DNA of 64,000 nucleotides from Spironucleus salmonicida. Its lineage: Eukaryota. Location: NCBI RefSeq assembly GCF_000497125.1, contig NC_090597.1:1313797-1377796 (forward strand). Reading direction: 5' to 3'. Shown here piece by piece: positions 758-23,525 of this stretch (positions within the stretch are counted from its first letter, which is position 1; each line of letters begins with the position of its first letter). The notes under the pieces are model-generated. The model had not been told where the DNA came from. It did not search any database and saw only the letters and a list, made by a program, of their open reading frames with translations. Made by a program: the position numbers and the translations under genes.

Positions 758-2389
758 ATGTTTGTACTGACACTATAACATTTACAAAACTGCCCAACAT
801 TAAACTAATCCTCTCATATAGATTTTTATGGCTTTTACATCAACGACACACATATTTAACTTGAAATTCCAACCAAATTCCCAGAAATTAAAATTTCAGA
901 GTTTCCTGATATGAGTAACGCGATGAAGTTTATATAAAGTGGAAAAGATGGATCATTCTATTGTTATAACGAAAACTCTAAATTTTAACGACTAGATGCT
1001 TGTAATATCTTAACTATTTAATTTCCAGAAGCTAACTTCATTCATACACTTGTTGAGAAGGATGGTGTATTTTTCGAGATCAAAAATTTTTACTATGAAA
1101 CATTCCATAATATTGGTAATTTTGAAATAATTTCTGAAGTGCTCTTTTTAGGAGACGAGATTATCGCGAAAATACCATAATTAAGTACAAACTTGAAGTT
1201 CCAAATAGATACAATCGGATATTTTATATAAAATACCCTTATTCAAACTGCGTATTGCAATAGTCAATAGATACCTGTTGTAGATGCTAAAATAACATTC
1301 TCAAACCTGTGTAAAACGATATAATTTACACTTTTGAACGGTTAGAATGTAGATTTTTAGCTCAAATTAGAGAATACAGTTTACTATAACTATATATATT
1401 CTCCTGGAGATATTAAAACTAATCTCATAGTTGGATTAGGTGATGTATGTAAAATTGTATAAGAACATATTTTCGAAGCCTTAAAGTCTAATTTTTCATG
1501 CCCTAAAAATTAAACTTTAATTGAAGATACCTGCATTTTAGATTGTCTTTTAGAAAATAATTGCCCTTCCATCTGTCCTGAAAACCACGAGAACATCGAC
1601 GGCGCTTGTTATGATTGCGGGATAAATGGTCATTTAGTGGAAGGATAATGTGAACAAATCGAATGCGAAGTAGGTCAAGTCCTTATTTAGGGGGAATGTA
1701 CAGAATTAGAATGTGGCGAATTTGAGGAGTGGAATGGAGCTTAATGTATCGCTATAATATGCAAGAAATATTCAATAATTATAGACCATAGTTGTGTTGA
1801 GTGCGATCTTGACGAAATAGTAAATGGAAATAAGTGTTAGAAGCTCATTTGTGGAGACTTTGAAATTATACATTAGCATATTTGCATCAGTTGTGGTATA
1901 GGCGAACTAGTGGAAAATGGTTATTGTGTAGAAATTATATGCAAAGAAAATTAAGAACTATTAGGGGATTAGTGTCAAGATATTGTTTGTGGAAATAACC
2001 AAATACTCGAAAATGGAATGTGCGTAAGCTGTGCTGAAAATGAAATTATTGTATTAGGAAAATGCAAGGAAAATCCGTGTAAAGAAGGTTAGTAGTTAAT
2101 AGGCATTTTCTGTGTAGACCCAACGTGCCCTATAGGTACAGTATTTTAAAACGGAAAGTGTGAGCAAATCATATGTGATATCGGTTGGATTTTAGTTGGT
2201 AATAGATGTGAGCCCATATTGTGTTAGGAGGGTGAGATTTTCATCAACGGGTAGTGCATAGAAAACGAAATTGAGGCATGTGAAGAAGGATAAATTTTTG
2301 AGGATGGTGAATGTGTTGATGGAGCAGTAGCTATAGGAGTAGTCTTGGGGCTGATTGGAGTAATTGGTGCACTCGGAAATCTAGTTTGA
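758..2389 (+). CDS. Cysteine-rich surface protein (543 aa) with tandem Cys repeats and C-terminal hydrophobic tail
   Basis: MFVLTLQH... start; Cys repeats from ~1500 (CPSICPENHENIDGACYDCG...CEEGQIFEDGECVDG); ends AVAIGVVLGLIGVIGALGNLV-TGA. Confidence 0.85.
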
Positions 2390-2560: not shown

Positions 2561-2950
2561 TCAGTCTAGTTCAGCCTGCTTGTCCAGGAGGAAGCGCTCG
2601 AGAGATGGGTTCCCGCGGCGGACGAGAACCCAGAGCATGTAAAAAATAACCGTGGCGCAGGCAAAGCTGATGTCTAGGACTATGGCCTGGTAGTACATGG
2701 TGCGTGTGCGGTTATATTTTGCCTGGTCCTCCGCCGGGCACACCTGTAGGGATAATTCCACTTCTCCATAAAGGGCACAGAACTTACTGATGCAGTCGGG
2801 TAGTGCCGTACCGAGGTGCCAAGTGACGCCACCGGCCGCTGCGAGGAATAATAGAGAGATAATTGGGAGCAGAGCTGCTGCATGGAAGGATGCTGTACGG
2901 CTGCGGGAGCGCATTAGGAGTGGGGAGAAGAGGAGGGCTGAGTAAAGCAT
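2561..2950 (-). CDS. Hypothetical membrane protein (start uncertain)
   Basis: 129-aa ORF ending in TGA, two to three hydrophobic stretches; the frame is open upstream of the ATG. Confidence 0.55.
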   Translation of the reverse strand: MLYSALLFSPLLMRSRSRTASFHAAALLPIISLLFLAAAGGVTWHLGTALPDCISKFCALYGEVELSLQVCPAEDQAKYNRTRTMYYQAIVLDISFACATVIFYMLWVLVRRGNPSLERFLLDKQAELD

Positions 2951-3069
2951 GCGCGGTCGCCTAGTCCAAGACTGCCAGGTATACGATTCCGTTGTATACT
3001 TTTTGTACCCCTAACAAAACCGGCACAGCTACCTACGTATACTAACATATCTGTGACCACTCCTCCATT

Positions 3070-3474
3070 ATGAGTTTACCTAACCATCTTTCTCAGCTCG
3101 CGATCGCCGTCACGCAGCAGGCCGCAACTGAACCACCGTTCTCGGCTAACTATGATGTATTCAAGTCGCTGCCTTCTACTGGAGATTTTCTATGCACGGT
3201 GTGTTAGGCCTCCCTCTTCCCGGGCGCCGCCAAGTTCGATGCGAAGTGCGGCTGGCCTGCCTTCTGGAAGGGCGATGAATCTAACCTCAAAGAGCTGGTG
3301 GATACCTCTGGTGGAAGGAAACGGACCGAGGTACGCTGCGCTCAGTGTGACGCACACCTCGGTCATCGTTTCGATGGCGAGCACTTCGGCAACCCCAAGG
3401 ACGTACGTTATTGTATCAACGCAGTTAGCGTGCAGTATGCGGGTCCAGACGGCCAGAAAAAGATATTCGAATGA
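3070..3474 (+). CDS. msrB: Peptide methionine-(R)-sulfoxide reductase MsrB (Cys-type, Zn-binding)
   Basis: TEPPFS, CTVC(Q=TAG)ASLF, KFDAKCGWPAF, RTEVRCAQCDAHLGHRF, RYCIN; missing from the ORF track because of the in-frame TAG. Confidence 0.95.
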
Positions 3475-3476
3475 CC

Positions 3477-3828
3477 TCACTTCTTTTTACTTTTTGCCTG
3501 CGCCGCCTCGAAGGCCGCTTTCTACTCCTCATCTTTTTTCTTTTCCTCATCTTCCGCCTACTGCTACATATAGGTCATTACTTTCTGCTACAGTTCCTCA
3601 CGGGCCTGGGCTAGCAGCAACTCTTGGTCATCAGCGTCTGAGAAGAACTCTAAGTGGACCGGCTAAGAAAACTCGTCCGTGCCTACCAGCACCCTGAAGT
3701 GTACGGACCACTGGGACTCCGAGTTCACACAGAGCTCCGCCAGGCGGTCCTCCTAAGATATCACTGTTGGGCCGTTGTGGATCACCACCTCCCCAGCGCT
3801 GCGCGACGTAGCGAATATAGTTTTACAT
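3477..3828 (-). pseudogene. Frameshifted gene (or assembly indel) for a ~116-aa protein with charged coiled C-terminus
   Basis: MQNYIRYVAQRW in one frame, EVVIHNGPTVISQEDRLAELCVNS...EAAQAKSKKK-TGA (AAGTGA) in the +1 frame; span is 3n+1; switch near the G4 run (cccc at 3791-3794). Confidence 0.6.
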
Positions 3829-4960: not shown

Positions 4961-5773
4961 TTTTCAGTAATAATTATAATATAATTATTTACAGAATATG
5001 ATTGAAAGGATGACATTTTGTTTTATATTTATTTATTTAATTATATTATCAGTCTTTCAATGGTTTTATATTACGGATATATTTTCTTATCATAATTTAG
5101 TATAATTTATCGCAAAATTAATCAATCTTTGATATCAGTTTTACTATATATAGAAATATAATTTTTTAGTATAGAGTTTTCTGTAAATATTTTTGATATG
5201 CAATTAATTTTTTAATATTATAATTTGTTCTTTAGTTAACACTATTGATTTACAAAATATAATGTTTATTTAAAAAATATAATATTGGCATGAAATGAAT
5301 TATTTAGCCGTAATGTAATTTTTTGCTAAATTATAACTGGGTATAGTAAGCCATCATAGTTTATTAAGATTAATGAAGATATGATAACATTTAAATAATC
5401 TATTTTATAAAGATCGCGCGAGTATTGCCCAACGTGAAAGACGCCGCGGGACCTGCGGCAGAAAGCGGAGCGCCAGCAGGCCCACCAACTCGCGGTGGTG
5501 GCGTCCGCAACAGGGTCTCCATCGTTTTTGGTCCGTGAGCGCTCTCTGCCTCACACAAGGTCGAGGTGGGCTGGCACCTGCCCTGCTTCGGTGTCGCACT
5601 TCTGGGGAGAAGGTCCCGGAGGTGGTGAGACCGGGAGACAGCTGCTGGCGCTGCGTGGATGGCTGAGAGTGGCTCGAGCGTCCGGCGGTTCATTTGGGAC
5701 CCTGGAGTACCCGGCCGTATGCACAAAGGTCGCTCCGAAGGCGCCAGAATACATATATAACTGCAGCCACAAA

Positions 5774-6031
5774 ATGGAGGAGGCGCTGCTGGCTCGCATA
5801 TCGGCACAGAACGAGGCCCTGGAGGCCCAGGTGGCGGCCCAGACGCTGCAGCTTACCGCACTGCAGCATGGCCGCAAGGGCCAGGCCGCGGCAGGGGTGT
5901 TCCGCCAGAACGCCCTCCTGCAGGCGCAGAACCGGGAGCTCCAGGACAAGGTGCTGGCGCGGGAGGCGGAAAGCCACGCGCTCAGGCAGCAGCTCCACGC
6001 GCTGCAGCGTGGGGGTGCGGCGGTGGAGTGA
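5774..6031 (+). CDS. Small coiled-coil protein (85 aa), repeat copy 1
   Basis: MEEALLARISAQNEALEAQ...GGAAVE; ACATATATAAC and AAAATG upstream; stop in GAGTGA; strong GC3. Confidence 0.7.
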   Translation: MEEALLARISAQNEALEAQVAAQTLQLTALQHGRKGQAAAGVFRQNALLQAQNRELQDKVLAREAESHALRQQLHALQRGGAAVE

Positions 6032-6069
6032 GGGACGCATTCACTGGCAGCGGGCGAGCGCTGGCGCCG

Positions 6070-6279
6070 TCACGGCTCCTCCTCCTGGTCCAGGATGATG
6101 ACGTCCTGCAGGTACAGCTTGGTGGGCTCGCGCAGCTCGTAGAGGTCCCGGCCGCCGCTCACCTTCTGGTACACGACGATCTGACGCAGGTACTCGTCCT
6201 CCATCAGCGCCTCCAGGCTCCCGCAGGACCTGCTCTTCTGCCGGGACAGCCGGGCACGCCACGGTCGTCTGGCCTCCAT
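6070..6279 (-). CDS. Small hypothetical protein (69 aa), repeat copy 1
   Basis: MEARRPWRARLSRQKSRSCGSLEALMEDEYLRQIVVYQKV...; GC3-biased codons; pyrimidine-rich upstream spacer. Confidence 0.55.
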   Translation of the reverse strand: MEARRPWRARLSRQKSRSCGSLEALMEDEYLRQIVVYQKVSGGRDLYELREPTKLYLQDVIILDQEEEP

Positions 6280-6387
6280 TCTGGTGAGAGGGGCCCTCTG
6301 GAAGAAACCGGAAACCGATTTCGGAATGTGGTACGGAAGTGCGCCCGCTCCCTTTCGGGTGCGCTGGAAGGGAAGTGAGGAAGTCGC

Positions 6388-6801
6388 TCAGATCGTCGTC
6401 TCGGTCGTCTTGCCCCCGCGGCAGGTCTGCACGTGCTGGACCTGCATCACCACCACGATCCTGCCGGCGTCCTGGAGGTACTGCTGCACCTCGGGCGTGA
6501 AGCTCTCCTCAAACACCCTCGCGTTAGCGGGCGTGTTCTCGAGCACCTGGAGCTGGCCGGAGAGCGAGGCGTGGTCCTGCGAGCACAGGTCCCCGATGAG
6601 CATGGTGCCCCTGTCGTTATCCAGAAGCGACTGCGCGATCTTGCTCGTTTTGCTCACAGTAAATACAAATCTTTATAGAGAAGCTGATGATGTTATCATC
6701 ATCTAGTTAAAATGAGGATATCCACCTTTACATATAGTAAGTATAGCACCCTTGTTATCACTTTTTTAGTTAATTTACTCAATCTCAGACCAGATAGACA
6801 T
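6388..6801 (-). CDS. Pyridoxamine 5'-phosphate oxidase-like / general-stress-protein FMN-binding split-barrel protein (137 aa)
   Basis: MSIWSEIEQINQKSDNKGAILTICKGGYPHFNQM...RFVFTVSKTSKIAQSLLDNDRGTMLI...SLSGQLQVLEN...; one continuous frame across the repeat boundary. Confidence 0.75.
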
Positions 6802-6920
6802 GATTTGATAAAGGGAAATTTATATTTACTTATTATTATGTGGTACAGTATATAATCATAAAAACTATACATTTGTATATAATTCAGAATCTTGTGTTTA
6901 TAAATATTATAATAATAAAA

Positions 6921-8165
6921 TCACTTTCGCATTTATTTCATTGGCCTGACATTAGGATTTCTTTTCAAGAAATATGCCACATCCTATTCAACTTAAGCTT
7001 TCCCAACTCCCTTCATTAAGTCATCTCCAAATTCCATACCCCGCTACTTTTTTTGATACTTTGCCATTTTGATCTATCTTTCCTCATAAAGTTCAGGGTG
7101 TAGTAAATGAGGCTACTTATATCCTGCAAAGCGCTTTTTCGTTAGGTCTGCTAAGTTATAAACAGTTCCTTTTAAGTCAAAATGTTTGATTCCTTTTGAG
7201 GTTGAAACAACACCATCTTCTATATATACAGCCACACGCATGAGACCTTAATTAGAACATTTTGGGCACATAAGCTTTCTAGCTACTTAAACCTGATCAT
7301 ATTAATGAAATTCACGTATATATGGTAAATTTCTAGCGTAATCTAATACTTCTTAAGTGTCTAAATATACTTATAGGCAAGATGAACATTTTAAAGCAAA
7401 TCTTTTAACTTCTGTAATACGTTGTTTTGAACTGTTAATAAGTTGGAGTTTAATTGCTAATATAATATTTTACATACCCTTATCTTCCGTATAAATAGCT
7501 AATACTTCAGATATTTCGTTTAATTTGATATCTGATGGATTATTAATAAGTTTCTCTTCAATATTTTCCTTTGTTATCCAACCGTCCCCAAAAGAAAGAT
7601 CGGGTTTATCTGATTTTACTTCTACTGGTTTTTGAGGAGTATGAACTGATTGCCATGGGGCTGTTGAAATATGTTGCTTATTCATTTCTGTAAGAGCTTT
7701 GAGGGCGGCAAAAATTGGGTCGGATGCTTCTTTATCATCGGATGATTCGTTTGGTTAATAAACTGGTTCACAACTTAATTATTCATCACTATTATTTTAC
7801 TAAATATTAAGTGCATCAGATTTAATTTTTAATTAATTCTTATCCAGTTTCTAAACTTCTTCAACTTGAATGTTAAGTTGTTTAGCAAGTTGGACGCCAA
7901 GTGCAATTACTTCCATATCTGGTCTAGAAAGTTATCCAAATTAGTTAAGTCGGTATGCTTATTCAACGACAAAGTTATAATTTTGTCTGTCTGGTTAAAC
8001 AACTAATAGATTATGAGCTGATTAAAATGTCTCTAAATATAGTTTTGAATTTTCATCTTTTACTTCAGCTATTACAGATGGTGTTGTATAATAATTTTTC
8101 GATTATACTAGCTCTGATCTATTGACAAAGAAGTTTGTATCAAGAATAAGGTGTTCTAATTCCAT
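6921..8165 (-). CDS. NOB1: 20S pre-rRNA endonuclease NOB1 (PIN domain plus Zn ribbon)
   Basis: LILDTNFF, TTPSVIAEVKD, LSRPDMEVIAL, CSSC...CPKC, C-terminal KRNPN. Confidence 0.92.
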
Positions 8166-8235
8166 AGTGAAGTGGAAAAAGAAAAGGTTTATGTTATAAT
8201 ATATAATAAATAAAATAATTCTAACAAAATAGAAA

Positions 8236-8481
8236 ATGCCAGATATCAAAATTCTAAGCTGGACTGGTGTAGTTTTTGTTAATCCTGATGAATAAATGTT
8301 ATGTTCTATTTGCAAGCAACCTGCAGATTTTCCGTGTCCAGTGTGTGAAGATTTATAAACTAGTAAATGCAAGTAAATTTCTGGTTAATGTGGTCACCTA
8401 TTTCATGTGCACTGCATTGATAACTGGATTGCTGAGCATTAGACATGTCCTCTGTGTTCTGAATCATGGCAACCAAAGTGA
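8236..8481 (+). CDS. RING-H2 protein of the Rbx1/Apc11 family (81 aa)
   Basis: IKILSWTGV, CSICK...CPVC...C...GQCGHLFHVHCIDNWI...CPLC...W. Confidence 0.88.
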
Positions 8482-8525
8482 ACTTATTATTCATATTATT
8501 TTATCTATTATAAAGTAATTTTGAT

Positions 8526-8545
8526 CCACTCCATTCCCGCAAAAT
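8526..8545 (+). promoter_or_regulatory. C-rich initiator plus CCGCAAAA motif upstream of WDR63
   Basis: CCACTCCATTCCCGCAAAAT immediately before ATG; similar motifs at other starts. Confidence 0.6.
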
Positions 8546-11020
8546 ATGTATCCTATTACACCAACATCATTTACGCGTCCTCAGGAAGCATATAACAAGA
8601 TGATGCAATTTTAAAATGTAGATGCATAAGACCATTATATGGAAGTACACTCTTTTACAGATTTAACATTTTCAGTTAAAACATAGCAAGTTACGTAAAC
8701 TATTTAGGCGACAGCTTCAACTATTAAACGGCCAACATAAACATAGATTACTTCTTCTTCATACAATTCGACTTAATATGAGCCATAATTATTAACTGAA
8801 TAAACATTAACATAAAAACTAAAGGATAATCCATTGCAATCTGCCATACAACGAGTTTCTGCCATTTTAACAGATTCTATTTATATGAATTAATTAGGAG
8901 ATGCTGAATATGCTATGCTTTCTGACTAAGAATAATATGATGCTCGTGGTCAGTCAACTCTTCCTGAAATATAAGCATTACAACATGCAAAGTATTCAAA
9001 AGGAAAAGTTGTCTCTTGTACTACTTCAACAAATTGGAATAATTCAACTATTGTGTTTCAAGCTGTTGTTCCGTAAGGATATTTCGAATCAATCGATGAA
9101 GAAACCGGGTTAAAAGATACCAAAAATGAATTTCACGTTCTTATTTGGAATATTGCAGATGCTCTATCACCATTAGGTGTTTTGGTTTCGCACACAGCTA
9201 TTTCTTCAATAGCAGTTAGTTAAAATAAATAGGGATTAGTGGTTTCTTGCGGTACTGTATCAGGTTAAGTTTTAGTATATGATTTAGATTCAACATTTAA
9301 ATCATTCTATGACGTCATTTTTTAGCAAAATGCTCCTAAAAATTCACAGGAAGCTATTTTCAACGCAAGAAATAATATGACATTTTCATAATCAATTAGT
9401 TCAAATTCAACACCTCAATATTTTTATCCTTCTATTTCTACATCTGTAACTCATTTCCATACTCTAACAATTACTGATATATAGTGGCTCCCTCATGATT
9501 GTTAAATATTACGTAGCGGCGAACTATAACTCTCAGCCAATCCAATGGGAGCAATTTAGTTTGTATCTGTTAGCCCTGATGGATTTTTAAAGTTATTTTC
9601 ATTAAATTGTGTAGATAGAGACACTACTAGACCAGATTTAACAGTATTAGTTCCATTCTTAACTCTTCCTATGGCTTCTATGTTCCCATAAGTTAAGTCT
9701 CTCAAACCTGTATCTATTACATTTCCCGATAGTCATGAACCTAATACCAATTTTGTTTTAGGAGATGCATTTGGAAATTTGAGTTTTAGTACTTGGCCAG
9801 CTGCAGTCGCTGGATTTTATGCATTAGAAGATGAAAAGAAACGTTAAGAAAAAGTTTTAAGCAGAGAGATGACAAATGAAGCAAATTAGTAACTAGAGAG
9901 ACTACAAACAATGTACTAAGATAATCCTACAAAAGGAACTTGTATTAGTAGTTTTAGATATTTTTTAGGTGCTGTTTTTAAATTAGAATTCAGCAAAATC
10001 AATAGTACTATGTTGATGGCTGCGGCAAGCGATGGTATTAAAATGTGGGTTTTAGAGAAAAATATTCATTTATAAAGTAGTGAAATGGCTATGAGAGGTG
10101 TCGTTGAAGAACAGTTAGTTTTGTAATAAGATTTTGAAGCTGGTGAAAATGCAGGTTTCGTTATTGTAGAATAAATGCCCTTTGTGTCAAAGCCATATAT
10201 GGCTGCCTAAAATATTATAGAAGAGGAAATAAATTTAAATTCTCCTTTTGTAGAATAAAATGCCTTGCTTTCACACTTAAATATGAATATTTCTAGCAAT
10301 TAAACTGTATCTGATATGAGTTCTATGAATGTTGGAGACTTAAATAAAAGGGCCCTTAACTAGCCTTAGATTTTGGTTAAATCATTTGAAACGGATTTCC
10401 CTAATTATGACTTTTACGAACCTGTATTTTCATTTTTGATTAATGAGGGCTCTATTACCGCTTGTTGTTTGTCACAATCTCGTGTGGGAGTTGTTTTTAT
10501 CGGAACGGATCGTGGATAAATTCTTGTATTTGATCTTCTTGATAGAATGTATGAACCATTAATCACTGCTTAAACAACTGTAGGACCAGTTACAAATATG
10601 CATTATTTTTCGTAGGCAGTAATGAGTAATTAAATATCAACAACTGTTCAGACTGATGCTAATGCTAATTTTAATATTTTACCAGAAAAGAAAAAATAGA
10701 GGCGTGTAGATTGCTTACTAGTGGGGGATATGCATGGAACAGTTCATGTTTTGGAAATTCCTAGCTCATTGAAATAGTAAAAGAAAAGAGCCGGTGCATT
10801 AGTTGATGAGAAAACAGTTCATGAAAAAAGTAGGCTAAGACAGCAATTTAGAAGATGCTTAGAAAGTGTAGTCTATATGAGATATAGATAAAACGTAAGA
10901 TCAAGATAAATTGACGAATCCAAATAAAGGGCTATCGAATAAGAAGAATAAAAATAAGAGTAGACCAGGTAAGAAGCTCTAAAGGAATAAGAAGAAAAAG
11001 CAGGCAAGAAATAGCAGTGA
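8546..11020 (+). CDS. WDR63: WD40 inner-arm dynein intermediate chain WDR63/DNAI3 (IC140-like), 824 aa
   Basis: VLIWNIADALSP...CGTVSGQVLVYDL, SHFHTLTITDIQWLP, GVVFIGTDRGQILVFDLLDR, VGDMHGTVHVLEIP, charged C-terminal coil. Confidence 0.8.
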
Positions 11021-11046
11021 TATATTATACTGAACAAATATATGAA

Positions 11047-12354
11047 TCATTCGTCAATAGGTATATTTTCTAACACACGTACCTAGCTTTGTTGATATTT
11101 GTGTTTATTTACTTCACTTAATTAAACCCCAGCTCCAAAATAGTAAAGTAAGAGATTAATAACAGGTAAGAGGCAAACTATTAAGGATATCATATATGGA
11201 TAGTTAAGTGCTCCTTAAATATAAAAGAATATTACTTTTCCACAACAACCACTACATGTTATTAGAAAACTAGCTACATAATTAAATTTTACAGGTAACA
11301 GTTGCATAATAACACCAGGTAATAGCGTCAAACATACAGAGCAATTTATTTATGCTAAATACGTATTCATGGTTCTAAGCCAAAAGGTAGTTGCAAACAT
11401 GTTTAGGAATTGATTTAACACTATTAACAAATTTGATAAAAGGAAAATAAACTTATTCAAATGCTTTTTTTATAGTAACAAAGTGAACAACGATCCTATA
11501 AGACTGCAAATCAATAGCCCTGTTTCAAACCCGGCTATAAGTATAGGTGACTAATATGGTAGTTTTTAAATAAACAAAAATTTTATTAATTCGTTAATAG
11601 TAGAGGTTAAAATAGAACAGAAAAATAGAGAAACTAATGGCTTTTGAATCAAATATAATGGAATAAGAGGATTAACTGCCGACCTTTCTATATAGTATAA
11701 TCCTACAAAGCATGATAATGAAATTAACAATAAACAAAATGCTGGAATATAGAATTGTAAACCCCCTAGAAAAAACGAGTATAACACAGTTAAAAATGCT
11801 AGCACGCTAATAGATGCTCCAGCGATATCAAATTTTAATTTATAAAAATTACTGTTAGTAATTAGCACAGAATATATACAGCAAACTATTAATAGTGCTC
11901 CGGTTGGATAGTAACAGCATCTTTTAAGAAAAGCACTGCTTACCAAAAAGTAAGGACCAAACACTTATCCTAAGTTCATATATGCAACAAACAGTATATA
12001 AAATTATTAGGAATCGATGACAGATGGAAGTAACCTAATATTACTTAAAAGAGCAGTATACGTTACTGAACATGATATTCCAAAAATAAATTCAAATATT
12101 ATTTTAACATAGTACTATTAACTTAATACTGTAAGAATGCACAATAATGAGCTTAGAAATAATCCGATCGTTAGTTGGGCCTATGAACCAATCCGATTCT
12201 ATACTCTTCCTAAAGCGAGTGAAAAAGACGCTTAAGAAATACTAGAATAAATTGATAATGTTGAAGTTAAAGTAACACCTAATATAACTAGAAACGGAGC
12301 TATGACTAATATTTTTCCTTTTGCTGGCTGTAAAAATAAAGGTTTAGTATTCAT
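11047..12354 (-). CDS. Major facilitator superfamily transporter (435 aa)
   Basis: About 12 hydrophobic segments; LGRVQNRIGS resembles motif A; ERSAVNPLIPL. Confidence 0.8.
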
Positions 12355-12438
12355 TTTTCGAAGAAATATAATATTCTTAATTATACATTATAAATATATA
12401 CAGTATGCATAGTTAATATTTTCATTAGTTTTTTTCAT

Positions 12439-13095
12439 ATGCTATCACGTAACCCAATTTATATTGCCTGTTCTGAATAAACTTTATTTAAGGATAATAA
12501 ATACAAATTTTTAACAAAAATAGAAAATATTAATATACAAAAAAATACTTACTCTACCATTTGTTCATAATAGATTTCATTCAAACTAACATATATACAA
12601 AAGTATAAATTCTACTTTAATCTTAATAAATAACATTTGTAAAGCTCTAAATTTCACCTTTTAATAATAGTTTTGATGTTTTAACAGCAATACAAAGTCT
12701 ATAAAAATATACAATCTGAGAGTTAATAATTAGCTTAAAAACTATATTCATTTCATCCTATCATAATTTATTTTATAGCAGTTTATATGTTTAATAAATA
12801 TTAACCTTACATCTTATATGTGTATTTCAGATGCTTAGTATTAATTCCGAATATTTAGTTTCTGCCATAAAATTTACAAAATATAAGTCAATTACACCAT
12901 AAATTTCACCTAACTTTACCTTATCATGACAATGCAAACATCATCTATCAAAAACCAACTGAATTAATCCTATACTGTCAATAATTTGACTGCAAACCAA
13001 ATGCCTATTATCAGCAAAAGGATATTCAGAATATCGTGTTAATTTATCCCATCACGCACATAATAATGATACAATAAAAAAATACAATATTCTGA
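12439..13095 (+). CDS. Possible hypothetical protein (218 aa)
   Basis: Open table-6 frame, but G-poor sequence makes chance ORFs plausible. Confidence 0.3.
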
Positions 13096-13152
13096 ATATC
13101 TTCACACGCTCGAAACTACCAATAAAGTTTTTAATTAAAAAAACGACTATTC

Positions 13153-16100
13153 TCACTCCCAAGTAAACCTCCATAGTTCTCCACATAGACTCATTTACAT
13201 TAGCTGCATTTCATACTTCCATCTAACCCCCAAATCTTCAAACTGAAGCGAAAACGCTCACTACAGGTCCGGCAAAAACGCGCCGCCGACCTTCGCCTAC
13301 CGCTCCTTTGCACGAATGACGTTCCGCAACCGCAAAATCTCAGAGCGGTTCTCCTCGTAGCGATCCAGCAGCGCCTCGTCGATCTTGCAGTCCGAGTTCG
13401 CCTGTACCTGCGCCTGGTGCAGCTCTCTGCGCAACTGGTTGATCTCCTGTAGCAGCAACGCGTTCTACTGCATCACACCGCTCGTACTGGACTTCGTCTG
13501 GTTGTTCTGCGCACTAACTTTTTGTTGCAATTTGACTACATTGGCCTCCATTTTTGAGAAGTTTCCGTTCACTTCGTCTTGCTCGCGCTGCTCCACTAGC
13601 TTGTTGGCCTTCTACGTGAGCGTCATATCGATGTTTTTGATCTCGTTGACTAGCTATTTATATTACATGTTCTTATCGATGCCTATCGCACTTGGCTAAA
13701 TCTACATTTTGCTATTTTAAAGCTGTAGATTGGGAAGGGAATTGAGTGATTTTTGCTATATAATTTAAGAATCCAGAACCCGCTTCATGCGGTTTACACT
13801 CACACGGACCTCGGAAAGTTTGTGCAAAATCGTGTATTTTTCCTCTTCGCTAATTGTGATTTACTGCTTCAAAGCGGTAATTTTGCGTGTCAATTCTTTC
13901 TTGTTCGTCTGCAGTTGCATTAAATTCAGCCTATATTAGCTCAGCTCCTGGTTCATCTCTTTGAGTTTAATTTTTAGGTCTGCACGTTCTTGGTCTTTTG
14001 GCTGTATAGTGCGCTTTAATTCGCGGATTTTGAATTACAAAATGAACGAAATTTTGTTCAATTCGCGAATTTTCTGGTTGAGTTCAACAACTCGCTTTTC
14101 ACGCTAAGAAATCGTGGAATCACGATTGCGAATTTCGTTTTTATTATCATTTATAGCCTTGCGTAATTCCGCAATTTTGGACTTTAAATCGCTTATTTCG
14201 ATTTCTTTGGCGGAAAGAAGCTTTTTCTGGTTGATAAGCGATGTTTCCAGCGTTCTATATTCTTGTTTTGTCGTGTAATTGAGCTGCTTTACCTGTTCTT
14301 GCTCCAAATCGAGTTCTTTGTTACGCTAGTTGTAAAATGAGGAATAATTATCGCATTCGACGTAAAGCTAATCCTCAGAAAGTTTGTAAATGAGCTCATT
14401 TTGCTCTGTCATAAACGAAAGTTGTTTATTTAGCGCTGAAGTTTTATTTGTCAACTGATCCAACTCCGATTCCCGCTATTGCATGTAATCGTCAACTTGC
14501 TAGCTCGTTTCGTTCACGAAAACTTGTTACTTCTGAATCAAGTCCTCTTCGACGTTGATTTGACGAGTTTAGAGCTCTGAAATCTGCTCCTACATCATCA
14601 CGAGGCGCTTCTGATACTGATTTTCTAGCGCTCGCTTCGAGTCCTTGAACAGATTCTCATTATTCGCAATTTAACGTTTCAGCAAAATCGCCTTGTTGTC
14701 GTGATCCGTTTTCAGGCGCGCGTGCTCTGATAAATGCGTCGAAATGTTATCGTTTGTGGAGTTGATAATTTTGTTCAAATCAATCTGAAATTGGTCGTCA
14801 AGAAATTGAAGCTTCTGTTGGAGCTCCTTTTTAGTGTCGAAAATATAGTTTTTTGCGTGATTTATCGTCTTGTAAATTCCCTAAAGTTGTGTATCGTGGA
14901 CTGAAAAAGGAAGGAAATTAGCTGTCAAAACTGACGTTTTCTCCTGCGTTTGCGATATCGATGCCTGCTGCTAAACGAGCGGTTTTGGGGTCATGAAATT
15001 CTTGAATTTTATGCTGTAAACGAGGCCGTCCTCGGTCGAAACGATGAATCCGGTATTGTCATGAATCGCTGAAAGACCGGTAATTCTGGTGTTGTTGATA
15101 GGAATCACAATTTCCTCAGATTCTTTGTCGCGGCTCAAAAATTTCGTTATATCACCTTAATTTCCTTAAATAGCGACTTCTTCAATGAGATTTTTGATAT
15201 TTTTTACTATAACATAGCCTTGTTCGTAGCTGATTATGAGGTAATTTAGCATTTATAATAACATAGTTGGTCGGCCTTTGTAGACTTTTTTCTAGTCCCA
15301 TTTTCCGTCGTTTATGCTGCAAATGACATCGTTGCTTGCACTTCCACGAATTTCGATCAAATTTAGTGCATTTCCAACGCCTATAACCTGGTCATTTCCC
15401 AAATTTACGTTCAAAATACCACGTTCTTTAGCATTAAAATCAAATACGCGAATTGTGGCGTCTGTCATAATTCCGAAAAGAAGTGGATTTTGAGGTAAAA
15501 ATTAGTTAATTGTTAGCTGGCCTTCTTTTTGTGAGATTATACCGCCGACACCAATGCAGCAGCTGACAAGAACATGCATTCCGCGTAGCGCGCATTATTT
15601 CTCGCGTTTTCCACTCGCAGCATCAAAAATACAAACCGTACCGTCCGCACACGAAATCCAGAATAATCCTTCATATTTTCCGCTCGAAAAATCTCTAAAA
15701 ATTGGCTAAATTGAGCTCACACGGCTAGGAAAATCATCAATTTTGTATAATTCCTCGCGTGCGTAAAAGTCGAAAACGTGTAAATGGATCCCACTAGCAG
15801 CCAAAAACAGGTCACCACTGTGCGAAAATGCCATAACTTTACAGAATTAAATGTTGAATTAATGCAATTTCAAGATCCTGTCGAGGTAAATCTGGCACAG
15901 CATAATGAAATCGGTTCCTGCTAAAACTAGATACTGAGCGCTCGGATGGAGCAAAATTTGGCTCGCAGTGTCAGGAAATCGGCAAAGCGAAAATTCGTTT
16001 AGAGTGAACTGATCAAAGATTCTGACGATTCGGTCGTTAGATAAAATGGCCAAATTGTTCGAAATGATTGACGAAGAAGTTGACGTAATTGTGTTATTCG

Positions 16101-17673
16101 TAAACAGCGGTTTTACAAGCCAAAGCTCAGTATTTCGGTTATAGTCGTATGGAAGCGATTGATCCAACGAATCCTCCGGAGACGATTAAAAGTTGATTTG
16201 CAGGATTTCTGCATCCATACTGTTCAAATCCGTGACTTCGCCTTTGATGATCGTCAGCTGGTCCTGGCTAATGAGCTTTTTGACCTCTTCCGTCTGATTT
16301 GTGAGCATCGTGCGAATAACGTCTTTTAGCGTATTCAGGTCTCGCGACTACAGAATGAACTGACCGCGCAGCCCGTCAACTTCCATAATTCGCTTCACGA
16401 GAAGCGGTAATTTGAGCCCAAAAATCATTTTCTGGCTCTAATTCCGGCCGTAGCCGACCATGAAACGTTCATTTTTAGTCAAAATCAAATTCTGGACGTC
16501 AAATGGCGGATTCGTACGACAGAGCAGCGAATCGACAACACCTGCGCAGGAATAGCTCAATAAGTGCACGAAAAATTTGTTGCTGTCGAACTGCTTTTCC
16601 CAGTTCGTGCTGCCGCTGTAGACGTTTTTGACGACAAATCGGAAGAATTCGCTGATTTGAATGCCGTAGAAATGAACGAGCCCCTTGCTGCTTGCAACAG
16701 CCAGGAACCCCGCAGAGCGCTCAGGAACGTCGATTTGGTTCAGTTGGCTGTTGAAAAACGTGAAATTCGTGCGGGCAGGATTCACATCCTCAAACGTGTT
16801 TTTGCCGTCAAAACCGTTCAAAAAGACCACCGGATCGTTTAAAAAGAGCATCTAGTTGAATTGAAATTCCTTCACAATTTCACACTTGAATTCGCTCACA
16901 ATCGTGTTGTTGAAAATGACGCAAATACTGCCATCTTTTGTGCTCAAAAGGATCAATTTATCGCTTTCTTGAGGGAAAAACGGGTACTTTTTCAAAAGCG
17001 CCTTGTTGAGGTAAATGCCGTCCGTGAAGATTTTGTTGCCCGTGAGACTCTGCATGTTATTAGGTGCTAGGACCTTCGCAGTCCCGGCGGCCAATTTGAT
17101 GAATTTTATAGTAGAATTCGCGATGAAAAGAAGCTCTTTGTCAGTCAGTTGCACAATTTTGAGCGTTTCGATTTCCTGGTCGTTTTTGCTGTCGATAATA
17201 TCCGGCTACGTGATTTTGAGCGAGTAGGTTGGTAGCGAGGTCGTTTTCTGGTCATTGTCGTAGATGAGCATCTAGTAGCCTGACGTGAAATCGGTGATAA
17301 CGAGCAGGCGGTTTTCAGTGACGAAATGGGCAAGAATGATCGATTTGACTATTTTCATGCCCTGGTTCGTTTTCACGGCGATAAAAATGCGGTGTTTGAA
17401 CTGGAATTGGAAGGCTGAGTTCTTCTCGTAAATTGAGACGCATGCACCCTCCGGGCGGATCTCTGTCGACAGCAGCGTACAGCCGTTATTGAAAAACTGC
17501 AGCTGTGCGATTTTGATGATGTTCTCACCCAGAGAGAGAGTTGTGACAGTTTTGTTTTCCGTAAAATTGTGGAAAACGACCGAAAACCCGGCTAGATAAG
17601 CGGTCACATCGGCTGTAACGTAGTGCAGCGTCGCGGAAGGCAACTGGGTAATGCCGAAAGTGGCCGATAGCAT
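13153..17673 (-). CDS. CFAP57: Cilia- and flagella-associated protein 57 (WDR65), 1,506 aa
   Basis: N-terminal WD40s; C-terminal REKRVVELNQKIRELNKISFILQFKIRELKRTIQPKD and MQQNALLLQEINQLRREL match CFAP57 hallmarks. Confidence 0.9.
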
Positions 17674-17699
17674 TTTTGCGGAATGTGGAGTGGGTGGGG
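17674..17699 (-). promoter_or_regulatory. C-rich initiator plus CCGCAAAA motif upstream of CFAP57
   Basis: CCCCACCCACTCCACATTCCGCAAAA-ATG on the minus strand. Confidence 0.6.
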
Positions 17700-17938
17700 T
17701 AATAAGATTAATTAATATATAATAATATGGTTAATAGATGCTTTTGAAAAAAGCTCGGTTGCTAAGATGCAGTTTCTTGGACAAGAGAAATATGTAAGCT
17801 TAAGGATGATATATTTAAGGCAACCTAGCATGTGAAGCTGATTATAGATATTTAATTGATAGAATATAAGATTGAAATAAGGTACTACCACTAGTTTATT
17901 ATAATATATAATATAAGAATTAATGCTTAAATTTTGAT

Positions 17939-18949
17939 ATGAATTAATATTCCTAACACTAGCTCACGAATACTACGTAAATAGAGTAATTTATTAACCA
18001 TTATTAAAATCTTACTGCTGATTTTTCGCCTTAACGGATTTTTAAAGCCATAGATTTCATTATAAACATAATGCATACTTACATTTCACAAGCGTCATAG
18101 GTTTATGATACTTTTCGCAAACTAAAGGTAATAAACTAAGCTATTCTGAATCTATCTAGCGATGATTTATTTTAGCAGGTGAAAAGACTCTTTCCTTCCG
18201 TGTTTGGATTTGCACGCAATAGCGAATAGATCTCTCTACACCCTTCGCAACTATTTAAAATCTTTGCAAATGCATTAATAGATGAAGCATTTGTTAACTA
18301 AAGGTATACAGGAAGATCAGTGTAGATGATAAAGGATCTACTTTAACATATATCGATAACTCACAAAATCGACTTCTCTTATGTGGAAGAGTATGCAGAT
18401 TTGTTAGTCTTTAATGCAGGCAAAATTGATGTCTTTAAATCGTACACTCAGCTTTACTTTATTATTTCGCTCTTAGGGGTAAAATTTGGCGATATTATGG
18501 ATCGGGGTAGTAAACTTGAGATGAGGTAGTTTGATGGGATAATTCATGATTTTTGGCGCGCAATGGAGCACAATTAGTTATTGATTTTGAACCAACCACT
18601 ATTTTTAGGATCAAAGTGTGTAGTTTTATCTAGATTCTTTGAGTCTGACAACGGTGATATTGTTGAAATGTAAAATGGATCCATTTAAATCAAAAGTGGA
18701 CTTATGAATGATTAGTTTAGGAAAAATAGCATTGGCAGTTACGAAACAATGACTTACCAAGGCATGAAAAGTAAACTCCTTGAAGATAGGGATTTTGGAG
18801 ATGAATTAAGAACAACACAGCTAAAAATGCCAAATTAAAGTTCTTAAATCTCAGAGTTACTCAAGTTAATGAGAGACATGTAATAGTAAATCAATAAATT
18901 ATAAAATGATGTTGAGGAATTAAAAGTTTTAAAAAATTATTACCAATGA
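17939..18949 (+). CDS. Hypothetical protein (336 aa) with C-terminal coiled coil
   Basis: Table-6 ORF MNQYSQHQLTNTTQIEQFINHY...DVEELKVLKNYYQ. Confidence 0.75.
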
Positions 18950-18992
18950 TTATTTTATTATGTTAATTATATTGTTTTTCTTTCCGCAAAAT

Positions 18993-19148
18993 ATGCAGTT
19001 TGTTTAACAAGTAGAATATCCCAAAGATTTTCCCGCACTTATGATGGATTTTTCAAGAGAAGTACTTAGAGAATAACCTGAAAATATCTATGAGTTTGCA
19101 GTTAAACATTTTACAACAATTAAAAAAGCATAAGTAGGATAACAGTGA
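18993..19148 (+). CDS. Stand-alone RIIa dimerisation/docking-domain protein (51 aa; radial-spoke/SPA17-like)
   Basis: YPKDFPALMMDFSREVLREQPENIYEFAVKHF; TTCCGCAAAAT upstream; CAGTGA stop. Confidence 0.85.
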
Positions 19149-19316
19149 AAACTCATATTATCTATATCTTTACGTAATACTATTTGTAAGATATATTTAT
19201 TTTATTCTTATATCTATACTATTCTTCATCGTTTTACAGTCCTTTTGATATCTTAATAATCAATGTAATAAAATATTATATCAATATGTTAGTTTTTAGA
19301 TACCACTCCTCAAATA

Positions 19317-21833
19317 ATGCAGTAACCAGATCTTATCGCAACACTATAATCTGCTTTAGATCCCAATTCTCCTAGCCATTAATAGTCTAATTTAGATATA
19401 AACAATTTACTATAATAAGCATCGCCAGATTTGTTAAAGTTAGCACTTTTTGGTGCAACATCAGCCAATGCCCCGGGAGAGTTCCGAGAATAGTCAGCCC
19501 TGCTTGTGAAAAACTTCCTTACTTCACAGAACCAAATTGTGCAGAGTTAGCGTTAGGCCGTCTGGAAAGCCTTTGAGATTGACTTCAAGGAACAGATCTT
19601 CTCCAGCCTGATGGGCGAGCTGAATCAACAACAGAGCTTCGGTCAGATCAACCAAATTTTCGCTGCGCTGGTAAACGCCTGCGACTACAAGGAGAAGAAC
19701 GAAATCATCGCTGGTCTGTTTGCCCAGGTCACTGGTCAGAATGTGCTGCGCATTCTGCAGATCCTGCTCCAGATTGAGATAAAGGATGCACAGATCCCGG
19801 AATTCATCGTATAGGCCTTGGAGCAGTGGCAGACGGTATTCCAGCCGCAAGACGCGCTGGAGTGCATTGTCCTGTGCATCAGGATACTGTAGTCTAGCAG
19901 CAGCAAGATCGCTAGGGATATGGAGGGGAGGGTTAACCTCCAGTTCAACAGCTTACTCTAGATGTGCGTATCTAATGGTCAGGTGGACTGGATTTGCGAG
20001 ATCCTCGAGTTCTACAACATCGTAGCGGACCAGTTCGATCTGCTGAACGAGCAGATCAACGGGCAGTCCTTTGCAGTGCAAATAATCAACCTGGGACTCA
20101 TGTTCTGCCCCGTCGAGCGGTAGGACCAGCGGATGTCCTTCATCATCCTGGAGCTGTACAAGAAACTATTCAGTCTCCCGCAGTACCGGTCGATCTACGC
20201 TTCCAACTATACATTCACTGTGATCGAGAGCTGCGTTCTGATGCACATAGAGAACCCCGCATACTTCCAGACCGCGCAGCTGAGTGACATTTTCGTGGTA
20301 GTCCAAGAGCTCCTGGGCACCATCATTCAGAACGCTAGCGAGCTATTACCAGACTTCGTCTCTCTGTATCAGGACTTCGTGTACTCCAGAAACTACCACC
20401 ATCCCCCCTCGGCAGACCCAGGCGCGTAGCTTAGCCAGCTCAAGTTCCAGATTCTGATCACACCGCTGCTGCAGCTGGAGAATGCGGCACAGATCCGTAC
20501 GTAACTGCTGGCAGACGTGCTGGGTGCACTGAACTTCGTCTTCTAGACCTCGCCACAGATAGTCCCACCGCTTCTGCAGTAGTCCCTTCTAGCGGCATCC
20601 TTCGTCATCAGTAAGACCACCTAGAAGCACAGCGTATTTAACCAGGTGTTAGCACTCACACCACAACTGACTCATGACTTCCATTACCAGGCGTTGGATC
20701 AGTTCCTCAGGAAGTTCATTGAGCTAGACAAGGGATATGCTCAGAATCACTTGAACAACATTCTACTGACAGTTATCCGCCCGGATAACACCACTATCTC
20801 CCTGCCGTCCAGTATGGTTCTGATCAACCATATTCTGCCGACACTTGAGTAACTCGTCAATTATACTAACTACAGCATGCTGCTACAATCACTCATAACC
20901 ATTTTCGCACCCCTGTAGCAGCTCTACATGGCCAACTAGAACAGTAACTACACATACCTCCAGGTGATCATCGAGGCCATCAACCTGCCGATCTTTTTCA
21001 TCGTCCAGAACCAGATACTGTTGTAGAAAGCAGACCTTATCTCTGCACAACAGTTGGTGAACCAGATCGAGAACCTCGTAATCCACGGCCTGCAGACCGA
21101 CGATTTCGCGACGGAGAACGTGGTCGCCAGTGGTATCGACCTCATTAGCGTCGTATTGCACAAGAACGAGCTGATCCTGCGGCAGGCAGGAGACCTGAAA
21201 GACTGGTGCATCCAGACCATCCGTAATGGAAACGGTGAGCTAGTAGCAAACTGCATCGACATCGTGATTTAGCTACCTAACTACCAGCCAGATACGGACC
21301 TCGAAAACCTCTTCGCTAGCGTGATCCAGAACCAGTACTCAACCGTCAAGGCCCAGAACGCCATCGTGGTCTACTACTGGCAGAAGATATAGCTTTTCAG
21401 CACCCTGCCTGCACCGGCCATCTTCCAGTTCTGCGAGACATTTATTAGCCGCATCGACGAGTTCAACTTTGCTGTCAAGGACTGGTTCATGCTGCTGCAG
21501 AGTGTGGTGCTTCTATACTCCCGGGTATACGAGTTCTCGCAACAGTACCCCGAGCAATTCGCATTCAGCTGCCAGAAGTTCATTTTCTTTAGTCAGCACA
21601 GGCCCACTCTTGCGACCGAGTACAACGAGATTCTCTTCAGCGTTGGCTACGAAGAGTGCTTCAACGGGATGATCCGGCTCTATCATAAGGAGAAGTCTCT
21701 TTAAAACATGATCCTGGGGTACATTCAGAGTCTAAAAAAAGTTTGGCCCGGACTTAGGGCCAATTGGAAAGGTACTGAGCTCGAAGGCAGTCTGCTGGTG
21801 TTCGAGGGGTAGTTCAGGGGTATCATTGAGTGA
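19317..21833 (+). CDS. Importin-beta/karyopherin family HEAT-repeat protein (838 aa)
   Basis: N-terminus LIATLQSALDPN...FREQSALLVKNF...W resembles IBN_N; helical repeats; joins several track fragments in one frame. Confidence 0.75.
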
Positions 21834-21868
21834 AATTTTGCATATTCAGATAAGATCTTTGGACTTTA

Positions 21869-22324
21869 TCAAGTTATCGGTGAATCCAGACAATTATTAA
21901 AAGACATATACAAATTATTTAGAATCAAACACTTTAATTTCAGTTTCACTAAAAGAGTCTTTAAATGCTTAATATTAGTTTTTATACCAAAAATCTATTC
22001 TATGGCAGTAGCTTCCTATTTTTCGTAAAGTAAATTTCTCGCTACAGTTCGTAGTTTTTAGTAGTCATAAATTTTTATTTTCCTATTACAATGTCGAGAA
22101 GTACAAGTTGTAGGTATATCTTATAAAATACTAAAGTTTAAAGCAAATAGTGAAGCCTCGTTTGAGTCACAAGGGTTAATCATTTTGATTATTGGCTTTG
22201 GCCGTAAAGAAAGGAATGGTTTGAGTTATATCTATGCATTTGAACTTTTTTATCTTAATGAATGTGAAGAATCCAAATCAAAACCTCGTTAATCTGATAG
22301 ATCAAGTTGAAGCGGTCTCTTCAT
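21869..22324 (-). CDS. Hypothetical protein (151 aa)
   Basis: Table-6 ORF MKRPLQLDLSDQRGFDLDSS... Confidence 0.5.
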
Positions 22325-22548
22325 TTTACCCCTTTAAATAATATCAGTTAATTGCACTTTATTGTAGTGAATTAATTGTTAAATGCTGAATATCATACAC
22401 GAGTCAACACATATATTACAGATAAATTTTAATCACATTTTTTCTTCATACTAAATTGTTATTAATAAAATTTAATCACTAATAATAATATTATTAATTA
22501 ACAAAAAGGTATATCAAGATCTTAAACCAGATATTCATTAACAGTCAA

Positions 22549-22804
22549 CAAGATCGCGCAGTCGCTTCTGGATAACGACAGGGGCACCATGCTCATCGGG
22601 GACCTGTGCTCGCAGGACCATGCCTCGCTCTCCGGCCAGCTCCAGGTGCTCGAGAACACGCCCGCTAACGCGAGGGTGTTTGAGGAGAGCTTCACGCCCG
22701 AGGTGCAGCAGTACCTCCAGGACGCCGGCAGGATCGTGGTGGTGATGCAGGTCCAGCACGTGCAGACCTGCCGCGGGGGCAAGACGACCGAGACGACGAT
22801 CTGA
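22549..22804 (+). pseudogene. 5'-truncated copy of the PNPOx-like gene
   Basis: Same KIAQSLL...TETTI C-terminal part; no in-frame ATG in the upstream flank back to a TGA near 22265. Confidence 0.65.
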
Positions 22805-22912
22805 GCGACTTCCTCACTTCCCTTCCAGCGCACCCGAAAGGGAGCGGGCGCACTTCCGTACCACATTCCGAAATCGGTTTCCGGTTTCTTCCAGAGGGCC
22901 CCTCTCACCAGA

Positions 22913-23122: not shown

Positions 23123-23160
23123 CGGCGCCAGCGCTCGCCCGCTGCCAGTGAATGCGTCCC

Positions 23161-23418: not shown

Positions 23419-23525
23419 TTTGTGGCTGCAGTTATATATGTATTCTGGCGCCTTCGGAGCGACCTTTGTGCATACGGCCGGGTACTCCAGGGTCCCAAAT
23501 GAACCGCCGGACGCTCGAGCCACTC

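Follow-up and report, generated by a model that had tools for sequence, protein, structure and literature searches.

An inverted repeat with two GC-rich arms is located in a stretch of 64,000 nucleotides (nt) of the Spironucleus salmonicida genome (contig NC_090597.1, positions 1,313,797 to 1,377,796 of the forward strand, RefSeq assembly GCF_000497125.1; to be referred to as the window, with its first letter as position 1). The inner edge of the first arm lies inside a gene whose product is similar to PNPOx_N domains and general stress protein 26 (GS26). The complete gene at arm 1 changes codon dialect in the middle of its reading frame. Its first codons are AT-rich and use TAA and TAG for glutamine (Gln), while the remaining codons end almost entirely in G or C and use only CAG for this residue. 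The gene, the repeat and the units inside the arms are listed here, with open reading frame abbreviated as ORF and the GC content at first, second and third codon positions as GC1, GC2 and GC3.

6388-6801, minus strand: the PNPOx_N/GS26-like gene, 137 codons and a TGA stop in genetic code 6 (TAA and TAG = Gln), native and whole.
6644-6801, minus strand: the segment of this gene that lies beyond the repeat, made up of codons 1-52 and two bases from codon 53, rich in A and T at third positions (AT3-rich), with three TAA and one TAG Gln codons.
6388-6643, minus strand: the segment of this gene within arm 1, with codons 54-137 plus the stop codon, a GC3 of 0.95 and CAG for 10 of 10 Gln residues.
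5425-6643: arm 1 of the inverted repeat, 1,219 nt, 65.8% GC, carrying ORF85, ORF69 and codons 54-137 of the gene.
6644-22548: the spacer between the arms, 15,905 nt, a single unbroken short-read DNA contig (6614-22578, run X2), with GC islands that have no near-identical second copy.
22549-23767: arm 2, identical to the reverse complement of arm 1 except for three mismatches, with AT-rich flanks.
22549-22804, plus strand: the arm 2 copy of the gene, limited to its last 84 codons; there is no Met in the frame upstream of the arm.
5774-6031, plus strand: ORF85, coiled-coil-like, GC1/2/3 of 0.85/0.41/0.88, CAG for 13 of 13 Gln residues, TGA stop.
6070-6279, minus strand: ORF69, an orphan, GC1/2/3 of 0.68/0.38/0.94, TGA stop; its copy is at 22913-23122 (plus strand) by arm mapping.
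6391-6642, minus strand: the 3' part of the gene as a coding unit, GC1/2/3 of 0.62/0.38/0.95.
5425-5773 (copy at 23419-23767): a stretch without codon periodicity, 349 nt, 63% GC, with an RNA-like contig (defined below) over it at 5420-6274.
5410-5419, plus strand: AAGATCGCGC, in the GC-rich overhang just beyond arm 1; the same 10 nt recur in exact inverted form at 6633-6642, at the opposite end of the island.

The frame of the PNPOx_N/GS26-like gene is uninterrupted under translation table 6, with TAA at codons 9, 12 and 43 and TAG at codon 33, and codon 53 straddles the arm edge at 6643. With ATG and TGG excluded, G or C is found at 8 of 44 third positions in codons 1-48 and at 82 of 87 in codons 49-137 (Fisher p = 4e-19). 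The four-fold degenerate sites change from 0/17 to 40/42 G or C across the step. The Gln codons are four TAR (TAA or TAG) and no CAR (CAA or CAG) before the step, and no TAR and ten CAG after it (p = 0.001). The best single GC3 step in the gene is placed after codon 51 (support range 48-52). The rise in GC3 begins outside the arm, at codons 49-53, and the switch lies within ~5 codons of the arm edge. A preliminary description of this locus had noticed the switch from AT-rich to GC-rich codons at the edge of the repeat, the change from TAA and TAG to CAG only, and the unbroken frame, all of which are confirmed here. An RNA-like contig also runs over the step.

The gene product belongs to a small protein family that is conserved across the step. 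A HMMER search of 1.84 billion representative proteins finds eight matches at E <= 0.001. Four of these are 138-142 residues long; their alignments start at query residue 1, 4 or 18 and extend to residues 131-134, and the best homolog (P0003) has an E value of 1.4e-15 and 35% identity. In a profile search, eight proteins are at E <= 0.001 among 798 candidates, and five are from Hexamita inflata. The identity of the eight homologs, in a nine-sequence alignment, is 23-36% to codons 1-48 and 19-33% to codons 49-137. A word-indexed search with the gene product returned only the query itself. The match to the Pfam domain PNPOx_N (PF01243) covers residues 18-126, and therefore both sides of the step, with an E value of 8.4e-5 and a score of 23.4 bits, under the cut-off of 28.1 bits. 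Moreover, eight of the nine aligned family members match PNPOx_N at E <= 0.01, and the family profile matches three solved GS26-like chains (2hq7_A at 8.5e-6). The protein resembles the PNPOx_N and GS26-like, flavin mononucleotide-binding split-barrel proteins (PF01243, PF16242; PDB entries 2hq7, 2fhq and 2re7) in having a single domain of ~140 residues. It differs from them in falling under the Pfam cut-off, and its family as seen here is small, with members in Hexamita and a few others.

Because the same eight homologs align to both halves of the gene at similar identity, the two halves belong to one diplomonad family, and the gene is native and whole and not a chimera. As it is native and continuous across the edge, its GC-rich part was once ordinary DNA of the lineage. 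The preliminary description had taken the GC-rich segment for native DNA and not for a foreign insertion, which agrees with the presence of Hexamita inflata homologs from end to end. A different phylogenetic origin of the two halves, the finding that would have spoken for a chimera, is not seen.

The inverted arms are the single repeat pair in the 64-kb window, both with a repeat finder and in a blastn self-comparison. Direct comparison of the arms finds mismatches at 3 of 1,219 positions, 5779 (G/A), 5843 (A/G) and 6571 (G/A), in the order arm 1/arm 2, for a divergence of 0.25%. The arms had been described as near-identical and two-thirds GC, which is correct. Their GC content is 65.8%, compared to 30.4% in the remaining window and 31.7% in the window overall. 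All three differences are G/A (strong/weak) pairs. Two of the three are synonymous, and the A/T allele there is at third positions that are otherwise 95% G/C, as expected of fresh AT-ward mutations. ORF85 holds two of the differences, in codon 2 (GAG/GAA) and codon 24 (ACG/GCG).

The edges of the arms nearly coincide with the changes in base composition. For arm 1, the GC change-points are at 6648 for the inner edge (support 6637-6662) and at 5415 for the outer edge (support 5411-5416). For arm 2, they are at 22555 for the inner edge (support 22541-22557) and at 23766 for the outer edge (support 23765-23777). The repeat edge is inside the support range in three of these four steps. In the remaining step, on the outer side of arm 1, the change-point is off by ~10 nt and lies 9-14 nt beyond the repeat edge at 5425. 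In this analysis, the GC content is 18-25% in the flanks and 65-66% in the arms. The flanks outside the arms (300 nt on each side) have no detectable homology to each other, with 104/300 and 203/300 shuffles reaching the observed score.

The duplication copied 1.2 kb of native DNA in inverted orientation to a position 15.9 kb away, including two small genes and the 84 codons at the 3' end of the PNPOx_N/GS26-like gene. Arm 2 is the derived, partial copy, because it has only the last 84 codons, with no Met and no sequence like the N-terminus upstream. The frame upstream of this partial copy in arm 2 shows no similarity to the N-terminus of the gene product.

The 10-nt inverted match AAGATCGCGC bounds the GC block of arm 1. 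When the two 51-nt edge windows are shuffled, a match of 10 nt is reached in only 4 of 2,000 trials. This sequence has three independent sites in the window, at 5410, 6633 (the same as 22550) and 31200, with copies at 22550-22559 and 31200-31209. The copy at 31200-31209 is ~35 nt from the edge of another island. A role as a general island-edge motif was considered and rejected, as there are only three independent sites and the other islands lack the sequence. The duplication event may have left this match behind as a scar, or it could be due to chance.

The three coding-like units in the arms all stop at TGA and use CAG for 28 of 28 Gln residues. G or C is present at 112 of the 124 four-fold sites across the arms (90%). 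The copy of ORF85 in arm 2 is at 23161-23418 (minus strand). In addition to the 349-nt stretch, two other stretches of the arms show no codon periodicity, 6032-6069 (76% GC) and 6280-6387 (60% GC). Searches of the window with Rfam (at gathering thresholds) and ARAGORN gave no match, including in the 349-nt stretch. A word-indexed search with ORF69 found only the query itself, and there is no Pfam match for ORF85, ORF69, the ORFs that cross the arm edges or the other ORFs of the flanks. Three ORFs cross the outer arm edges, at 5049-5693 (minus strand), 23499-23879 (plus strand) and 23654-24583 (minus strand). They have no family and little RNA where covered. Most likely, these are chance frames of the kind that a code with TGA as the sole stop often produces.

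The structure of the repeat is supported by read contigs. The contigs of two short-read DNA runs from one sample were compared with the region 5000-24500. Two runs of another study were taken as RNA by guess, from their gene-shaped contigs, bare intergenic stretches, adaptor ends and one T-run, and their contigs are referred to here as RNA-like. The repeat assembles as a contig of 1,219 nt that matches the arm exactly. The flank contigs are 5049-5454, 6614-22578 (6614-20639 and 20611-22578 in the other run) and 23738 onward, and each of them shares 30 nt with the repeat. Repeat ends are found at both sides of the spacer contig, and all four junctions are confirmed. No empty-site joint or loose end at the arm edges is found among the short-read contigs. 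This contig topology needs two inverted copies. The RNA-like contig that crosses the GC step (6571-6722) extends 72 nt to one side of the edge and 79 nt to the other.

The contigs show mosaics of the three arm differences, with both states seen at 5843 only. For this reason, the differences at 5779 and 6571 may be assembly errors or popped bubbles. One contig, for instance, has A at 5779 and begins 5 nt into the arm 1 flank. In one run, the repeat contig has a depth of 194.6 and its flanks 143.5-198; in the other, these depths are 15.4 and 9.9-12.3. If the inverted arms recombine, the spacer of 15.9 kb would be flipped. Short-read junctions are blind to its orientation, and both isomers may exist. 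A polymorphism in which a single copy is inverted was considered and rejected; it would need A/C' and C/D joints, and there are none among the contigs.

The two arms are not the only GC-rich segments here. A two-state hidden Markov model finds ten GC islands in the window, covering 8,736 of the 64,000 nt over a background GC of 0.281. The arms are the richest of the ten (0.659 and 0.658, compared to 0.452-0.545 for the other eight), and they have the sharpest edges. Five of the other islands (13227-13624, 15542-15653, 16230-16837, 16998-17699 and 19452-21820) are all located within one DNA contig of 15,965 nt (run X2). They should therefore have no near-identical second copy, as the contig would otherwise have broken, as it does at the arms. 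Two coding regions overlap these islands.

19317-21833, plus strand: a gene of 839 codons with no near-identical copy, read from the second Met of an 856-codon ORF, with RNA-like contigs over 19325-21830.
13258-18084, minus strand: an ORF of 1,608 codons with WD-repeat and coiled-coil character and a patchy GC3.

In the 839-codon gene, GC3 is 0.20 up to codon 49 (range 48-79) and 0.73 beyond it, and the Gln codons are TAA before this step and mostly CAG after it. As this single-copy gene steps too, a flip within a gene needs no repeat edge. The same GC step in single-copy orthologs was named in the preliminary description as evidence that would count against its reading. A similar step is present in this window in a different gene with no near-identical second copy, and this counts in part against that reading. 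The GC3 of the 1,608-codon ORF is 0.10-0.37 at its 5' end, which is perhaps not coding, then 0.6-0.77, then dips to 0.23-0.5, and finally reaches 0.8-0.9 in the last ~80 codons. Over its last ~84 codons the value is 0.86, compared to 0.50 before. An RNA-like contig terminates in a T-run at 13244, only 14 nt beyond the stop codon of this ORF, which suggests a very short 3' untranslated region.

The choice of Gln codon follows the local GC3, as seen from the counts in three classes of sequence.

Four AT-rich genes: TAA 75, TAG 28, CAA 30, CAG 9.
Three single-copy island segments: TAA 2, TAG 24, CAA 22, CAG 76.
The arms: TAA 0, TAG 0, CAA 0, CAG 28.

The loss of the non-standard Gln codons is the end-point of a gradient that follows the local GC3, and it is not peculiar to the repeat. 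The local erasure of these codons that had been proposed for the arms is thus real as a loss, but it is not specific to them. The long ORFs of the window are open only when TAA and TAG are read as Gln.

A gene for SelR (methionine sulfoxide reductase B, E = 1e-33) is located at 3070-3474 (plus strand) in an island with 54% GC (2572-3813), and it keeps an in-frame TAG in the region of its first Cys motif in spite of its GC-rich surroundings. The neighboring genes are AT3-rich (GC3 of 0.21-0.27) and of ordinary diplomonad type.

758-2389, plus strand: a Cys-rich repeat protein with a hydrophobic C-terminus.
6921-8165, minus strand: NOB1 (PIN_6 and Zn ribbon).
8191-8481, plus strand: an RBX1/APC11-like RING-H2 protein.
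11047-12438, minus strand: a membrane protein with weak similarity to the major facilitator superfamily.

The locus is a sharp local example of the GC-rich islands that are already published for this organism, and the parts of the phenomenon are known. The genome of S. salmonicida has 33.4% GC in 12.9 Mbp (Xu et al. 2014, PMC3916229), and published values for it are 33.4-33.5%, compared to 31.7% in the window. Its finished contigs shift sharply, from ~30% to almost 70% GC within a few kb, and the GC content at synonymous third positions (GC3s) is above the regional GC (Andersson et al. 2007, PMC1805757). In that paper, lateral transfer was argued against because many high-GC3s genes have Giardia homologs, and the cause was left open. 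Duplicated regions of the genome (self-matches of at least 2 kb and at least 95%) have 44.7% GC, compared to 30.7% elsewhere (Xu et al. 2022, PMC9509377). The genome-wide comparison of GC in duplicated segments, for which the preliminary description had called, is therefore already in print. In Xu et al. 2022, gene conversion is mentioned only for surface-protein genes. The GC-rich regions in these accounts (PMC1805757; PMC9509377) have in common with the window an AT-rich genome, the diplomonad code, sharp GC shifts, native genes and duplicates that are richer in GC. The window fits the island pattern, with a GC3 of 0.88-0.95 for the ORFs of the arms at a regional GC of 0.66. On the other hand, the published accounts give no mechanism, do not speak of biased gene conversion and show no gene-internal step at a repeat edge, and the 1.2-kb repeat of the window is under the 2-kb cut-off of Xu et al. 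2022 (PMC9509377). A full-text literature search found no paper that joins 'biased gene conversion' with 'Spironucleus', and with 'diplomonad' it found none on this subject.

Other repeats with elevated GC provide a comparison. In primate X chromosomes, the palindrome arms have 46.3% GC and the flanks 41.2%, with a conversion bias of ~0.7 (Jackson et al. 2021, PMC8981503). Like the window repeat, the primate sex-chromosome palindromes have gene-bearing inverted arms that are more than 99% identical, with GC above that of the flanks. The cause proposed for them is biased repair in intrachromosomal conversion. The same paper allows that the palindrome arms were GC-rich when formed (PMC8981503), a caveat that holds for the window arms too. 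There are large differences in scale, however. The contrast in the window is ~40-48 GC points (66% compared to 18-25%) and that of the palindromes is ~5. The palindromes are tens to hundreds of kb long, whereas the window arms are 1.2 kb, with a spacer 13 times the arm and an edge inside a gene. Plastid inverted repeats and ribosomal DNA arrays (PMC4524490, PMC5713276; reportedly also Escobar et al. 2011, cited in PMC10123126) are also described as repeats that are homogenized by conversion and richer in GC than single-copy DNA. They are organellar or arranged in tandem, with modest shifts, while the window has a nuclear repeat of two copies with an extreme shift.

The fact to be explained is that a GC step of 40 points meets the ends of a duplication at four junctions, within 0-14 nt. 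We tentatively favor, at somewhat less than an even chance, GC-biased gene conversion from arm to arm, on top of the general island process of this genome. The arms would repeatedly serve as templates for each other's repair, by intrachromosomal, non-allelic gene conversion, and mismatches in the heteroduplex would be resolved more often to G:C. In a background of AT-biased mutation, such conversion would keep the arms alike and push every class of site toward GC, synonymous sites most of all. The Gln codons could pass from TAA to TAG to CAG by synonymous transitions, and the non-standard codons would vanish. A more general process of the same genome would also make the milder GC islands in single-copy DNA, and this could perhaps be the same bias acting between homologous chromosomes. 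This lineage is not known to have a sexual cycle.

Conversion between the arms is plausible because the GC steps coincide with the ends of the repeat, where homology stops. It would account for this coincidence, for the arms being the richest and sharpest of the islands, and for the published GC excess of duplicates. It would also account for the near-identity of the arms, which extends to the useless gene fragment in arm 2. The rewriting of the arms by such conversion had been put forward in the preliminary description, and it is plausible to this extent, but a young duplication fits the three differences equally well. The further claim that the conversion has been long-running finds no support from this locus, with 3 differences in 1,219 nt.

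Several observations weigh against arm-to-arm conversion. The GC block exceeds the outer edge of arm 1 by 9-14 nt, which is out of the reach of conversion. A divergence of 0.25% may mean youth and not homogenization. GC islands and GC3 steps within genes occur in this window where there is no near-identical duplication, and conversion leaves these single-copy islands unexplained. Within the arms, the non-periodic stretches have 63%, 76% and 60% GC, compared to 90% at four-fold sites, which is unlike a drive that is blind to the class of site, although constraint could explain the lower GC of the non-coding parts. The depth of the collapsed repeat contig is ~1.0-1.5 times that of the flanks and not twice as high, for which the GC bias of the libraries may be responsible. 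In the homolog alignment, columns with the residues F, Y, M, I, N or K (FYMINK) are kept at 12/16 in the N-terminal part and 10/22 in the C-terminal part of the protein (p = 0.10), which is a trend only. The strength of the bias is a further difficulty. If mutation favors AT by a ratio of ~3-4.6, as estimated from the flanks, AT-to-GC fixations would by our arithmetic have to outnumber GC-to-AT fixations by ~27-41 to 1 at four-fold sites (a scaled strength near 3.3-3.7) and by ~5-8 to 1 in non-coding DNA. The required drive would far exceed that of the primate palindromes, with their bias of ~0.7 and GC excess of 5 points.

The overhang at arm 1 and the small divergence would be explained if an older island was copied only recently, a possible explanation that we consider on the unlikely side. 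A GC island of ~1.25 kb would have pre-existed at arm 1, and a recent duplication would have carried its inner 1,219 nt to arm 2, with no conversion needed. Single-copy islands with steps inside genes are present in the same window, and the arms differ at three positions only. The GC block at arm 1 is slightly larger than the repeat (5411-5416 compared to 5425 at the outer edge, and GC3-rich codons 49-53 at the inner edge), while arm 2 is surrounded by AT-rich DNA up to both of its junctions, with no residual homology beyond them. There is no known reason, however, for both end-points of the duplication to fall within ~15 nt of the island edges, and this would be left to chance. The arms (0.66) are also clearly richer than the other eight islands (0.45-0.55), and the published genome-wide GC excess of duplicates would need a separate cause.

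A quite unlikely explanation is that the high GC is linked to coding or expression, with codon selection or a bias in transcription-coupled repair having raised the GC3 of strongly transcribed small genes and the duplication being incidental. In its favor, four-fold sites reach 90% GC in arms whose non-periodic DNA has 60-76%. Mean word depths are 557 and 899 in the RNA-like contigs that cover the arms, compared to 1-97 for neighboring genes, a poor measure as two copies are collapsed. Non-random codon usage was inferred for high-GC3s genes by Andersson et al. 2007 (PMC1805757). The same paper finds high-GC3s genes among the weakly sampled expressed sequence tags, with optimal codons that are not simply GC-rich (PMC1805757). 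Moreover, the 349-nt stretch has no codon periodicity and still has 63% GC, compared to 18% just outside, and the step is located inside one transcript and one ORF and not at a gene boundary.

Insertion of foreign DNA is highly improbable. In this explanation, a GC-rich block would have arrived by lateral transfer or on a mobile element and been fused in frame to the start of a native gene. The sharp contrast in composition, the lack of TAA and TAG sense codons, the two ORFs without a family and the 10-nt inverted match at the ends of the block would be expected from it. The part of the protein in the arm nevertheless continues the same diplomonad family, with equal identity to the Hexamita homologs, all three ORFs of the arm stop at TGA, the only stop of this code, and TAR codons are lost with rising GC3 in native genes as well. 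The ORFs scanned contain no match to a transposase or any other family of mobile elements. A DNA transposon with terminal inverted repeats, or a miniature inverted-repeat transposable element, was considered and rejected. Arm 2 lacks one end, there is no transposase family and there are two copies only, and the block supplies a host gene with its in-frame 3' part; a target-site duplication was sought by eye only.

An assembly artifact, such as a chimeric long read or a contaminant, is barely credible: the repeat contig has a depth near that of one copy and not two, and the arm differences appear as mosaics in the contigs, but the contigs of two DNA runs enter the repeat by 30 nt from all four flanks, and an RNA-like contig from another study crosses the GC step. 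Foreign DNA and an assembly artifact are thus excluded for practical purposes, because the gene family is continuous across the step and because of the read evidence. The probability that is left over from the explanations above would belong to these two or to something unknown.

A bolder possibility, which we regard as unlikely, is that this diplomonad has a homology-dependent, GC-enriching repair process that is far stronger than any measured biased gene conversion and that acts in vegetative cells, in a lineage without described sex. The GC content of duplicated segments would be raised by it to about two-thirds, or more than 90% at synonymous sites. The borders would be sharp to ~10 bp, and coding third positions would be hit harder than non-coding DNA. 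The harder effect on coding third positions would suggest more than classical GC-biased gene conversion, which is blind to the class of site. If there is such a process, genes that are cut by repeat edges, such as the PNPOx_N/GS26-like gene, would be natural before-and-after experiments.

If arm-to-arm conversion is the cause, the locus would show how strong this process can be outside meiosis, with a GC jump of 40 points within one reading frame. It would also show that Gln codons made from reassigned stop codons can be lost through purely synonymous steps. In addition, it would offer an explanation for the GC islands described in Spironucleus in 2007 and for the GC excess of duplicates described in 2022. 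Screens for foreign DNA that are based on composition, and estimates of expression that are based on codon usage, will misread such segments in this genome.

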